From Escherichia coli (lineage in GTDB: Bacteria; Pseudomonadota; Gammaproteobacteria; Enterobacterales; Enterobacteriaceae): 64,000 bases of DNA. Position 1 is the first letter of the stretch. Each line of letters opens with the position of its first letter. Location: assembly GCF_003334385.1 (NCBI RefSeq), contig NZ_QOWN01000004.1; one strand, written 5' to 3'. Shown piece by piece: positions 925 through 4,028 of the stretch. The notes under the pieces were generated by a model. That model searched no databases. It was not told the DNA's origin and saw only the letters and a list, made by a program, of their open reading frames with translations. A program made the translations under genes and the position numbers.

Positions 925-3153
925 ATGTACACACAGACCCTGTATGAGTTAAGTCAGGAGGCTGAACGCCTGTTACAGCTTTCTCGCCAACAGTTGCAGT
1001 TACTGGAAAAAATGCCTCTCTCTGTACCCGGAGACGACGCGCCACAACTGGCTTTACCCTGGAGTCAGCCTAATATCGCCGAACGTCACGCGATGCTGAA
1101 TAATGAGTTGCGTAAAATTTCCCGACTGGAAATGGTGCTTGCAATTGTCGGTACCATGAAAGCAGGGAAATCAACCACCATTAATGCCATTGTTGGTACG
1201 GAGGTTCTGCCTAATCGTAATCGCCCAATGACTGCGCTGCCGACGCTTATTCGCCATACGCCCGGGCAAAAGGAACCGGTACTGCATTTTTCACATGTCG
1301 CGCCAATCGATTGTTTAATTCAACAATTACAACAGCGCCTGCGTGATTGCGATATTAAGCATCTGACCGATGTGCTGGAAATAGATAAAGATATGCGTGC
1401 GCTTATGCAGCGGATCGAAAATGGCGTCGCTTTCGAAAAATATTATCTGGGTGCCCAGCCTATTTTTCATTGTCTGAAAAGTTTGAATGATTTAGTGCGA
1501 CTGGCGAAGGCGCTGGACGTCGATTTTCCTTTTTCTGCTTACGCCGCCATTGAGCATATTCCCGTGATTGAAGTGGAGTTTGTCCATCTAGCGGGGCTGG
1601 AGAGTTATCCCGGTCAGTTGACGTTACTGGATACCCCCGGGCCAAATGAAGCCGGGCAACCGCATCTGCAAAAAATGCTTAACCAGCAGCTGGCACGCGC
1701 CTCGGCGGTACTGGCGGTGCTGGATTATACGCAACTGAAATCGATCTCCGATGAAGAGGTCCGTGAGGCGATTTTGGCGGTGGGGCAATCGGTGCCGCTG
1801 TACGTGCTGGTCAATAAGTTCGATCAACAGGATCGTAACAGTGACGACGCCGACCAGGTGCGGGCACTGATTTCCGGGACGCTGATGAAAGGCTGTATTA
1901 CGCCACAGCAGATATTTCCGGTGTCGTCGATGTGGGGCTACCTGGCGAATCGGGCGCGCTATGAGTTAGCCAACAACGGTAAGTTACCACCGCCAGAGCA
2001 ACAACGCTGGGTGGAAGATTTTGCCCATGCCGCGCTTGGCAGGCGCTGGCGTCATGCCGATCTGGCGGACCTCGAACATATTCGTCATGCTGCCGATCAG
2101 TTGTGGGAAGATTCGCTGTTCGCCCAGCCAATTCAGGCGTTGCTTCATGCCGCTTACGCTAACGCCTCGTTGTATGCTCTGCGATCTGCCGCGCATAAAC
2201 TGTTGAATTACGCGCAGCAGGCGCGGGAATACCTGGATTTTCGTGCGCACGGGTTAAACGTCGCTTGTGAACAATTGCGGCAAAATATCCACCAGATCGA
2301 AGAAAGTTTGCAGCTATTGCAACTCAATCAGGCGCAGGTGAGCGGCGAGATTAAACATGAAATCGAGCTGGCCCTGACCTCCGCCAACCACTTTCTGCGT
2401 CAACAGCAAGATGCGCTGAAGGTGCAGTTAGCCGCCTTGTTTCAGGATGATTCGGAGCCGTTAAGCGAGATTCGTACCCGCTGTGAGACACTGTTACAGA
2501 CGGCGCAGAACACCATCAGTCGCGACTTTACGCTGCGTTTTGCCGAGCTTGAATCCACCCTTTGCCGGGTGTTAACCGATGTTATTCGCCCCATTGAGCA
2601 ACAAGTCAAAATGGAATTGAGCGAGTCAGGGTTTCGTCCTGGGTTTCATTTTCCTGTTTTTCACGGCGTAGTTCCCCACTTCAACACTCGCCAGCTGTTC
2701 AGTGAAGTCATTTCGCGCCAGGAAGCAACGGACGAGCAGAGCACGCGTTTAGGCGTTGTGCGTGAGACTTTTTCGCGCTGGTTGAATCAGCCCGACTGGG
2801 GACGGGGAAATGAGAAATCACCGACAGAAACGGTTGATTACAGTGTGTTGCAACGAGCATTAAGCGCAGAAGTCGATCTCTATTGCCAACAAATGGCTAA
2901 AGTTCTGGCAGAGCAGGTCGATGAATCTGTTACGGCAGGCATGAATACTTTTTTCGCTGAGTTCGCTTCATGTTTGACGGAATTACAGACGCGTTTACGC
3001 GAAAGTCTGGCTCTGCGTCAACAAAATGAATCGGTGGTCAGGCTGATGCAGCAGCAATTGCAGCAGACTGTGATGACTCACGGCTGGATTTACACCGACG
3101 CCCAGCTGTTACGCGATGATATTCAAACACTTTTCACGGCAGAACGATATTGA
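925..3153 (+). CDS. crfC: Dynamin-like GTPase CrfC (YjdA), 742 aa
   Basis: ATG at 925; P-loop GTMKAGKSTT; long coiled-coil C-terminus; length matches. Confidence 0.9.
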   Translation: MYTQTLYELSQEAERLLQLSRQQLQLLEKMPLSVPGDDAPQLALPWSQPNIAERHAMLNNELRKISRLEMVLAIVGTMKAGKSTTINAIVGTEVLPNRNRPMTALPTLIRHTPGQKEPVLHFSHVAPIDCLIQQLQQRLRDCDIKHLTDVLEIDKDMRALMQRIENGVAFEKYYLGAQPIFHCLKSLNDLVRLAKALDVDFPFSAYAAIEHIPVIEVEFVHLAGLESYPGQLTLLDTPGPNEAGQPHLQKMLNQQLARASAVLAVLDYTQLKSISDEEVREAILAVGQSVPLYVLVNKFDQQDRNSDDADQVRALISGTLMKGCITPQQIFPVSSMWGYLANRARYELANNGKLPPPEQQRWVEDFAHAALGRRWRHADLADLEHIRHAADQLWEDSLFAQPIQALLHAAYANASLYALRSAAHKLLNYAQQAREYLDFRAHGLNVACEQLRQNIHQIEESLQLLQLNQAQVSGEIKHEIELALTSANHFLRQQQDALKVQLAALFQDDSEPLSEIRTRCETLLQTAQNTISRDFTLRFAELESTLCRVLTDVIRPIEQQVKMELSESGFRPGFHFPVFHGVVPHFNTRQLFSEVISRQEATDEQSTRLGVVRETFSRWLNQPDWGRGNEKSPTETVDYSVLQRALSAEVDLYCQQMAKVLAEQVDESVTAGMNTFFAEFASCLTELQTRLRESLALRQQNESVVRLMQQQLQQTVMTHGWIYTDAQLLRDDIQTLFTAERY

Positions 3154-4028
3154 CCAAGACGTTACTTGACGGCCCCGGTCGCGTGCTGGAGTCGGTTTAT
3201 CCCCGCTTTTTAGTGGATCTGGCGCAGGGTGATGATGCCCGCCTTCCACAAGCCCATCAGCAGCAGTTTCGTGAACGACTGATGCAGGAACTTCTTTCGC
3301 GTGTGCAGCTTCAGACATGGACGAACGGCGGCATGTTAAATGCGCCGCTTAGCCTGCGTCTGACATTGGTGGAAAAACTGGCGTCGATGCTGGATCCCGG
3401 TCATCTGGCACTGACGCAGATCGCGCAGCATCTGGCGCTGCTGCAAAAAATGGATCACCGCCAGCACTCTGCTTTCCCGGAGCTCCCCCAGCAAATTGCC
3501 GCCTTGTATGAGTGGTTTTCAGCCCGTTGTCGCTGGAAGGAAAAGGCGTTAACGCAACGAGGCCTACTGGTGCAGGCAGGTGATCAGAGCGAGCAAATTT
3601 TTACCCGCTGGCGTGCTGGGGCGTATAACGCCTGGTCGTTGCCTGGGCGCTGTTTTATCGTTCTGGAGGAGTTGCGCTGGGGGGCATTTGGCGATGCCTG
3701 CCGTCTGGGAAGCCCGCAAGCGGTGGCGTTGTTGCTGGGTGATTTGCTCGAGAAAGCGACACAACATCTGGCAGAGAGTATCAATGCGGCACCGACCACG
3801 CGTCACTATTACCATCAGTGGTTTTCCTCTTCGACCGTTCCGACGGGCGGGGAGCATGCTGATTTTTTAAGTTGGCTGGGAAAGTGGACCACGGCAGATA
3901 AACAACCCGTTTGCTGGTCAGTGACCCAACGCTGGCAAACTGTCGCGCTGGGGATGCCACGACTCTGTTCAGCGCAGCGTCTGGCGGGGGCAATGCTCGA
4001 GGAAATCTTCTCTGTAAATTTGGCGTAA
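3150..4028 (+). CDS. yjcZ: YjcZ, 292 aa, partner of CrfC
   Basis: ORF overlaps crfC stop by 4 nt; start codon at 3150 reads TTG, so the true start is uncertain. Confidence 0.75.
   Translation: MTKTLLDGPGRVLESVYPRFLVDLAQGDDARLPQAHQQQFRERLMQELLSRVQLQTWTNGGMLNAPLSLRLTLVEKLASMLDPGHLALTQIAQHLALLQKMDHRQHSAFPELPQQIAALYEWFSARCRWKEKALTQRGLLVQAGDQSEQIFTRWRAGAYNAWSLPGRCFIVLEELRWGAFGDACRLGSPQAVALLLGDLLEKATQHLAESINAAPTTRHYYHQWFSSSTVPTGGEHADFLSWLGKWTTADKQPVCWSVTQRWQTVALGMPRLCSAQRLAGAMLEEIFSVNLA

Follow-up and report, generated by a model that had tools for sequence, protein, structure and literature searches.

The window analysed here is a 64,000-nucleotide stretch of Escherichia coli DNA in which two co-directional genes overlap on the plus strand. 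The upstream gene, crfC, also called rdcA or yjdA (925..3153), encodes a dynamin-like GTPase of 742 aa according to the open reading frame list and the RefSeq annotation of the identical K-12 sequence. The downstream gene, rdcB or yjcZ (3150..4028), encodes a protein of 292 aa with PF13990 on residues 21–287. The 3' end of crfC reads ...GAA CGA TAT TGA, and the TG common to the rdcB start TTG (3150–3152) and the crfC stop TGA (3151–3153) gives a 4-nt overlap, the TTGA junction (3150..3153, plus strand). The original prediction had placed the TTG and the overlapping stop at these positions, which agrees with the sequence, the ORF list and RefSeq; RefSeq/PGAP starts rdcB at the same TTG with the identical 4-nt overlap (WP_000169188.1). 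The closest in-frame stop upstream of rdcB is a TGA at 3117..3119 (plus strand), and none of the ten codons from there to TTG 3150 is an ATG, GTG or TTG in the rdcB frame. An NTG over a TGA stop is by itself unsurprising, since any of three out of the four bases in front of the TGA makes one. What is not random at this junction is that 292 open codons begin at exactly TTG 3150 and that this position is homologous to an ATG conserved in 77 species.

The next in-frame ATG lies, as predicted, about 44 codons downstream and is codon 45 of rdcB (3282..3284, plus strand). In addition, two in-frame GTG codons that the original prediction did not mention are found between the TTG and this ATG, namely codon 12 (3183..3185) and codon 22 (3213..3215), both on the plus strand.

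The junction was compared in 81 loci, 77 of them from non-Escherichia species. The stop–start geometry is conserved in all 81, either as an NTGA overlap or with the stop at most 2 nt from the start; in detail, 72 loci show ATGA, 4 TTGA, 4 TAA-NN-ATG and one TGATG. Conservation of the TTG and of an upstream Shine-Dalgarno (SD) sequence had been proposed as a check on the start. The first part holds within the genus, as TTGA was found in all Escherichia sampled (K-12, LF82, O157, two further strains, three clade or species loci and P0008), while all 77 non-Escherichia species carry ATG at the homologous position; the SD, in contrast, is absent. The last codon of rdcA specifies eight different amino acids in the 72 ATGA species and yet always ends in A, so this base is kept for the start codon of rdcB and not for RdcA. 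Of 5404 E. coli records, 5124 carry one and the same 45-nt sequence spanning the TTG; no exact match to an ATG version of the junction occurs among the 5404, and the three sampled variants of the 45-mer all carry an ACC>ATC change in codon 2. Divergence within Escherichia near the junction was 0.06–0.11 compared with approximately 0.15, a dip no larger than the scatter along the rest of the operon.

RdcB is a full-length member of its family, with a PF13990 match of E = 3.4e-143 that places residues 21–287 on model positions 1–272 of 272, and its gene lies directly 3' of the dynamin-like GTPase gene rdcA in the window and in the loci with enough upstream sequence. No NCBIfam model matched RdcB, and no relative was found in the PDB. 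An alignment of 19 sequences gave an AlphaFold2 model of mediocre quality (mean pLDDT 65, with residues 1–16 below 50); it predicts, at low confidence, helices at 9–26 and 35–52 and says little else about the N-terminus. Residues 1–44 align across genera, with G8, R11, L13, E14, F20, V22 and L24 nearly invariant; TTG 3150 is the only canonical start after the TGA at 3117 that precedes the first of them. For codons 3–44, dN/dS is 0.11–0.48 between genera and 0.08–0.44 within Escherichia, the latter range resting on 1–5 non-synonymous and 3–7 synonymous substitutions. The position of Met45, on the other hand, is occupied by Thr in most sampled homologues from other genera, and Met45 is derived in Escherichia, where it appears alongside the ATG>TTG change. 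The original prediction had called the true start ambiguous. This ambiguity is resolved by the comparison with homologues, which have an ATG at the TTG position and conserve residues 1–44 as protein, by the non-conservation of Met45 beyond a few lineages, by the extent of PF13990 and by the RefSeq start. TTG 3150 is thus strongly supported as the start of rdcB by comparative evidence; it is a correct but ordinary start, already used by standard annotation. The supplementary texts of a TRAINSPOTTER N-terminomics study (PMC13245402), an INRI-seq study (PMC9825163) and an acid-stress Ribo-seq study (PMC10746267) mention neither rdcB nor yjdA.

In gamma-proteobacteria, overlapping pairs of this kind usually have an SD in the last part of the upstream gene, though it is not strictly required, and the rdcB junction lacks it. 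With -2.8 kcal/mol, the SD duplex energy at TTG 3150 coincides with the median for random positions and is 37th among 40 local genes (local median -6.35 kcal/mol). Homologous starts in other genera average -2.6 kcal/mol, and an SD before the start is absent in all but a few of the species compared. The other candidate starts are no better equipped, with -2.9 kcal/mol at both GTG codons and -2.4 kcal/mol at ATG codon 45, all equivalent to no SD. In the predicted fold of a transcript that starts at the internal promoter described below, the highest accessibility among the candidate starts is that of the TTG region, with an unpaired probability of 0.54 (90th percentile of windows) compared with 0.27 for GTG codon 12, 0.40 for GTG codon 22 and 0.47 for ATG codon 45. 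Both GTG codons were rejected as alternative starts: besides lacking an SD, codon 12 lies in poorly accessible RNA and downstream of the nearly invariant G8 and R11, and codon 22 lies inside PF13990, which opens at residue 21.

A published FliA (sigma-28) promoter within crfC, which drives rdcB, had been overlooked in the original prediction. It lies at 2898..2925 on the plus strand, with the -35 element TAAAGTTC at 2898–2905 and the -10 element GTCGATGA at 2917–2924, and matches exactly the motif listed in Table 2 of PMC4183435; relative to the consensus TAAAGTTT-N11-GCCGATAA there is one mismatch in the -35 and two in the -10 element. This intragenic promoter in yjdA is supported by ChIP-seq, RNA-seq and lacZ-fusion data (PMC4183435; bioRxiv 10.1101/188474). 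Deletion of fliA lowers yjcZ RNA from 52 to 1 (PMC4183435), and the activity of a yjcZ lacZ fusion is FliA-dependent (10.1101/188474). The FliA core TAAAG-N16-CGAT is present in 65 of the 81 loci; in 12 of the 16 loci lacking it, from 12 species, the SD is absent as well and ATGA is nevertheless kept. The usual geometry of FliA promoters would put transcription initiation at about 2932–2934. A conserved AUG in the rdcA frame lies at 2941, approximately 8 nt from this presumed 5' end. As the FliA-driven yjcZ mRNA does not carry the crfC start, RdcB cannot come solely from coupling to full-length CrfC, and much of the rdcB mRNA may never carry ribosomes that translate full-length rdcA.

Taken together, we consider it likely that these observations are best explained jointly by a TTG start at 3150, reinitiation on the rdcA–rdcB transcript and a separate route via the FliA mRNA. 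The TTG would then be the real initiation codon of rdcB, at the position where other Enterobacteriaceae have an ATG that overlaps the rdcA stop as ATGA; a change of the final rdcA codon to TAT (Tyr) in the Escherichia lineage would have turned ATGA into TTGA. On the full-length rdcA–rdcB mRNA, ribosomes that finish rdcA at its UGA would most likely start again on the UUG overlapping it, because an SD is absent before the rdcB start, a situation that fits reinitiation by ribosomes completing rdcA and makes translational coupling of the two genes plausible. On the FliA mRNA, which would provide rdcB with a leader of approximately 215 nt without the rdcA start, the UUG would have to be used without full-length rdcA being translated, probably through de novo initiation that does not depend on an SD, at a site predicted to be unstructured. 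With so weak a start codon and no SD, each Escherichia mRNA would be expected to yield less RdcB than it would with an ATG. Studies on overlapping E. coli gene pairs are of interest here: four of five tested pairs were strictly coupled, and in four of five removal of the SD reduced reinitiation by 60–90% or abolished it (PMC6728339), suggesting that the SD-less rdcB UUG may reinitiate poorly. A minor short RdcB isoform from Met45 may exist in addition, given that this residue arose in Escherichia alongside the ATG>TTG change.

A relocation of the Escherichia start to ATG 3282, giving a 248-aa RdcB with the stretch from TTG to ATG as an untranslated relic, appears highly improbable. Of the two codons, ATG initiates more strongly, the joint appearance of Met45 and the TTG would fit such a shift, and some automated gene calls do begin there (P0013, 248 aa, 577 member sequences). 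However, the ATG has no SD (-2.4 kcal/mol) and is not used by RefSeq. The 44 upstream codons are intact in all nine Escherichia junction or N-terminal sequences read, the identity of 5124 of 5404 E. coli records covers the first 5–6 of them, and their dN/dS within Escherichia is 0.08–0.44. Such a start would moreover drop 24 PF13990 residues (21–44) and cut the helix predicted at 35–52 in the low-confidence model. The coexistence of two isoforms, with the TTG giving a full-length protein and Met45, GTG codon 12 or GTG codon 22 a shorter one, is also quite unlikely. Initiation at the UUG by coupled ribosomes and at a downstream codon by free 30S subunits on the FliA transcript would be one such case; all four candidate starts lack an SD, so that de novo initiation has no clear preference among them, and ATG codon 45 is moderately accessible in the predicted fold. 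Conservation, however, does not support a second start, Thr being the usual residue at position 45 in the other genera sampled, and both GTG codons lie in less accessible RNA than the TTG.

Alternatively, rdcB might be entirely uncoupled, with all RdcB made by SD-independent de novo initiation on a monocistronic FliA mRNA and the overlap reflecting genome compaction only. The documented internal promoter, the 52-fold fall of yjcZ RNA without FliA, the presence of the promoter core in 65 of 81 loci and the predicted accessibility of the TTG region all point in this direction. So do a reported polysome-associated, MazF-cut mRNA starting 23 nt upstream of the start (PMC5001579), whose Table 1 lists yjcZ as cleaved at ACA with a distance of 23 nt to the start, fitting the ACA at 3127..3129 (plus strand), and the example of bioBF, the one of five E. 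coli overlap pairs that initiated de novo (PMC6728339). We nevertheless regard this reading as unlikely, as the stop and start overlap or abut in 81 of 81 loci, the A of ATGA is maintained over eight different final RdcA residues and ATGA persists in the 12 species without internal promoter motif or SD. In addition, deletion of the operon was complemented by plasmids carrying the whole rdcA–rdcB operon (PMC6510439).

Reinitiation together with a FliA route also permits a more elaborate scenario, to which we assign little probability. Escherichia would have weakened RdcB translation through the ATG-to-TTG change at an SD-less junction, the family-conserved FliA promoter in rdcA would be retained, and the RdcB:RdcA dosage would be set by two separable routes, operon reinitiation and the flagellar-regulon mRNA, with a short ORF from AUG 2941 keeping coupling on the latter. 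Translation from this AUG might yield a 70-codon C-terminal RdcA fragment that ends at the UGA and hands ribosomes to the UUG. An ATG at 3046 in the rdcA frame was rejected as such a coupling ORF; it has an SD-like match (-6.3 kcal/mol) but is not conserved. A programmed -1 frameshift fusing CrfC to RdcB was also discarded, as the CTTTTC shortly before the junction is no canonical slippery heptamer and varies by genus (CTATTC, CTTTTT).

The junction resembles the 4-nt ATGA pairs described by Huber et al. 2019 (PMC6728339), which are likewise co-directional, encode interacting proteins and conserve the UGA overlap across genera. It differs from them in that the Escherichia rdcB start is UUG instead of AUG, that the rdcA 3' end is devoid of the SD most of those E. 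coli pairs needed for efficient reinitiation, and that an internal promoter adds uncoupled mRNA; for rdcA and rdcB, moreover, coupling is a prediction from sequence. Within the same window, eptA–basR and dcuS–dcuR are also functionally linked genes with a 4-nt stop/start overlap, but they have ATG starts and strong SDs (-10.8 and -8.7 kcal/mol) compared with the TTG and -2.8 kcal/mol of rdcB. The basR–pmrB pair shares a TTG start directly at the stop of the upstream partner; there, however, TAA and TTG abut without overlap and the SD is of moderate strength (-6.3 kcal/mol). The promoter has its counterpart in the 'duon' in flhC that serves motAB-cheAW (10.1101/188474), also a sigma-28 promoter in the 3' coding part of an upstream gene; both drive the downstream gene and are conserved at synonymous positions. 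That study analysed conservation and protein constraint for flhC/motA and makes no special mention of conservation for the yjdA/yjcZ promoter, whereas we find its core in 65 of 81 loci, as a putative promoter outside E. coli.

The original prediction of CrfC and YjcZ as partners is borne out by the literature, since RdcA binds RdcB and both jointly activate the diguanylate cyclase DgcE, which heads the control of the biofilm matrix in E. coli (PMC6510439). The amount of RdcB relative to RdcA could therefore influence the switch from motility to biofilm formation. Together, a weak start, the lack of an SD and a conserved FliA promoter within rdcA give a modest picture of dosage control and not to a new mechanism; otherwise this is routine start-codon annotation. 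The correct TTG start matters for expression constructs and proteomics databases, because some automated gene calls shorten RdcB to 248 aa. Tryptic peptides encoded 5' of Met45 are TLLDGPGR, VLESVYPR, FLVDLAQGDDAR and LPQAHQQQFR.

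The crfC gene (also known as rdcA or yjdA; 925..3153, plus strand) ends in CGA TAT TGA, and an open reading frame of 292 codons, rdcB (yjcZ; 3150..4028, plus strand), starts within it. Its first codon, TTG (3150-3152), shares a 4-nt overlap with the crfC TGA (3151-3153), as had been proposed from the sequence, and the RefSeq annotation begins rdcB at the same TTG with the same overlap. The first in-frame ATG after the TTG, at codon 45 (3282-3284, plus strand), also lies at the distance originally given. In-frame GTG codons are found at codons 12 (3183) and 22 (3213), both on the plus strand. 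The closest upstream in-frame stop is a TGA at 3117-3119 (plus strand), and no ATG, GTG or TTG occurs in this frame between that stop and position 3150. An NTG triplet across a TGA is in itself likely enough, since three of the four bases that can precede the stop produce it; what carries information is that the frame stays open for 292 codons and that its start codon has homologues in other species.

For this homology, the rdcA/rdcB junctions were read in 80 species loci, taken from a collection with one genome per species. The homologous start codon is ATG in all 77 non-Escherichia loci, in 72 of which it truly overlaps the rdcA stop as ATGA; the remaining junctions are TAA-NN-ATG (four) and TGATG (one). 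The final rdcA codon in the 72 ATGA loci is CCA, ACA, AGA, CTA, GCA, TCA, GTA or AAA, i.e. it encodes eight different amino acids with a third base that is always A, which argues that this base is kept for the rdcB start and not for RdcA. In all Escherichia lineages read, the junction is TAT-TGA and therefore TTGA, including the window, LF82, O157:H7 and two further E. coli strains, a divergent genome labelled E. coli, Escherichia sp. E1V33, E. whittamii and the locus encoding the database homologue P0008. Of 5404 E. coli records, 5124 are identical over the 45 nt that have the TTG at their centre. An ATG version of this 45-mer has no exact match among them, and the three variants sampled all differ at rdcB codon 2 (ACC>ATC). 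With a longer 57-mer half of the E. coli records differ from the window, and all four intact junctions sampled among these variants (LF82, O157, N3 and B1.H1.18) carry a synonymous change at codon 6 (CTT/CTG). As a feature the TTG start is not new and has little general interest, to which the Escherichia-specific ATG>TTG change makes a small addition.

The coding evidence points in the same direction. RdcB homologues of 288-303 amino acids from several genera, including Citrobacter, Enterobacter, Kosakonia, Phytobacter, Huaxiibacter and Superficieibacter, can be aligned from residue 1, and G8, R11, L13, E14, F20, V22 and L24 are nearly invariant among them. The dN/dS ratio of codons 3-44 is 0.11-0.48 against other genera (codons 46-290: 0.125-0.355) and 0.08-0.44 among Escherichia lineages, where substitutions are few. 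A start at Met45 is disfavoured because it would delete these conserved residues as well as part of the Pfam PF13990 match, which spans residues 21-287. Taken together, junction homology and the evidence that codons 1-44 are coding resolve the start in favour of the TTG at 3150; this assignment is well supported by sequence comparison and matches the existing annotation, and the ambiguity suggested in the original prediction does not hold. Met45 is itself derived, most sampled homologues from other genera having Thr; Met is found here in Escherichia, alongside the ATG>TTG change at codon 1, and in a few other lineages. Divergence within Escherichia dips near the junction (about 3090-3270, against three species loci, L002, L003 and L013), where dS of codons 3-44 is 0.10-0.26 vs 0.53-0.63 in the rest of rdcB; this dip is within the scatter found elsewhere along the operon.

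No Shine-Dalgarno (SD) sequence precedes the rdcB TTG: pairing with the 16S 3' end reaches at best -2.8 kcal/mol, the same as the median for random positions in the window, and the TTG comes 37th among the 40 starts annotated in the first 50 kb (median -6.35 kcal/mol). The three alternative in-frame starts (codons 12, 22 and 45) are equally devoid of an SD, which is likewise absent across genera (mean -2.6 kcal/mol). In contrast, the nearby 4-nt overlaps of eptA-basR and dcuS-dcuR have SD energies of -10.8 and -8.7 kcal/mol, and pmrB (basS), whose TTG directly follows the basR TAA (TAATTG, 7069-7074, minus strand), has, unlike rdcB, a moderate SD (-6.3 kcal/mol). Of the 40 local genes, fxsA is the third with a TTG start (42454 in the MG1655 locus, about 42455 in the window). 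For proP the start choice is opposite to that of rdcB, the longest frame opening at a TTG (4259, plus strand) and the annotation at an ATG (4292).

Termination-reinitiation is expected to leave just such a signature, a conserved stop/start overlap without an SD. Four of five E. coli overlap pairs were strictly coupled in the study of Huber et al., and removal of the SD usually lowered reinitiation by 60-90% (PMC6728339). Although canonical, UUG is a weaker start, found in about 3% of E. coli genes; initiation at the three canonical codons reaches 10-100% of what AUG gives (10.1101/063800). Considering these effects together with the SD-less overlap, rdcB on the operon mRNA would be translated by coupled but inefficient reinitiation after rdcA. 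Coupling is plausible and fits the anatomy, yet it is not the sole route. Indeed, the original prediction left out a second one, the FliA (sigma-28) promoter within crfC. Fitzgerald et al. mapped this promoter within yjdA, driving yjcZ; a lacZ fusion to it was FliA-dependent, and in a fliA deletion strain yjcZ RNA fell from 52 to 1 and yjdA RNA from 111 to 11. The published motif, TAAAGTTCTGGCAGAGCAGGTCGATGAA, is matched at 2898-2925 (plus strand). From the usual FliA geometry, transcription would start at about 2932-2934, with a leader of about 215 nt wholly within the rdcA coding sequence. As such an mRNA lacks the rdcA start, rdcB could not be coupled on it to translation of full-length RdcA. 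Among the candidate starts, the region of the TTG is the most accessible in the predicted fold of this transcript (mean unpaired probability 0.54, 90th percentile of windows; codons 12, 22 and 45: 0.27, 0.40 and 0.47), a result in keeping with de novo initiation that needs no SD. MazF processing provides weak and indirect support: according to Sauert et al., yjcZ belongs to the polysome-associated mRNAs that MazF processes, and its cleavage site is an ACA 23 nt ahead of the start codon (PMC5001579), in agreement with the ACA at 3127-3129 (plus strand), exactly 23 nt 5' of the TTG. This ACA is not conserved, other genera having AAACCCT or AAACTCT.

Of 81 loci (the window and the 80 species loci), 65 carry the promoter core TAAAG-N16-CGAT at the corresponding site. 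In these 65 the T of TAAAG is a third codon base, the codon being Arg, Leu, Ala, Gly or Cys depending on the species. In some species a typical peptide (RKALAAQVDVS or RKALSAQVDVS) is intact and synonymous substitutions have removed the motif, so that the DNA itself appears to be under selection. In this respect the crfC promoter resembles a second promoter/coding 'duon' besides flhC/motA, and its conservation is again a small addition to a known feature. Of the 16 loci without the core, 12 also lack an SD and retain ATGA, which argues that coupling alone can serve the rdcA-rdcB pair. A conserved ATG in the rdcA frame (2941-2943, plus strand), about 8 nt 3' of the putative FliA start, would open a 70-codon frame on this transcript, the TGA of which overlaps the rdcB start; it may simply be a conserved RdcA Met.

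RdcA, a dynamin-like GTPase, binds RdcB, and both are needed to activate the diguanylate cyclase DgcE; rdcA-rdcB has been described as an operon of the flagellar regulon (PMC6510439). No solved structure was found, and the AlphaFold2 model of RdcB is of low quality. The window itself is K-12-like, with 11 substitutions and one 1-nt indel (19422) in its first 50 kb relative to an MG1655 record; one of these substitutions, T at 3825 (plus strand), changes Ala226 of RdcB to Ser. The best match to 2900-4100 among about 5,400 complete E. coli genomes is 99.9% (one mismatch). Inactivated copies of rdcB occur occasionally in E. coli: in NZRM4169 the gene has an internal deletion that begins near codon 4, and in N3 a frameshift. 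Some database proteins of 438-442 amino acids (P0020-P0022) join the dynamin domain PF00350 to the YjcZ domain PF13990 and are presumably deletion fusions of rdcA and rdcB.
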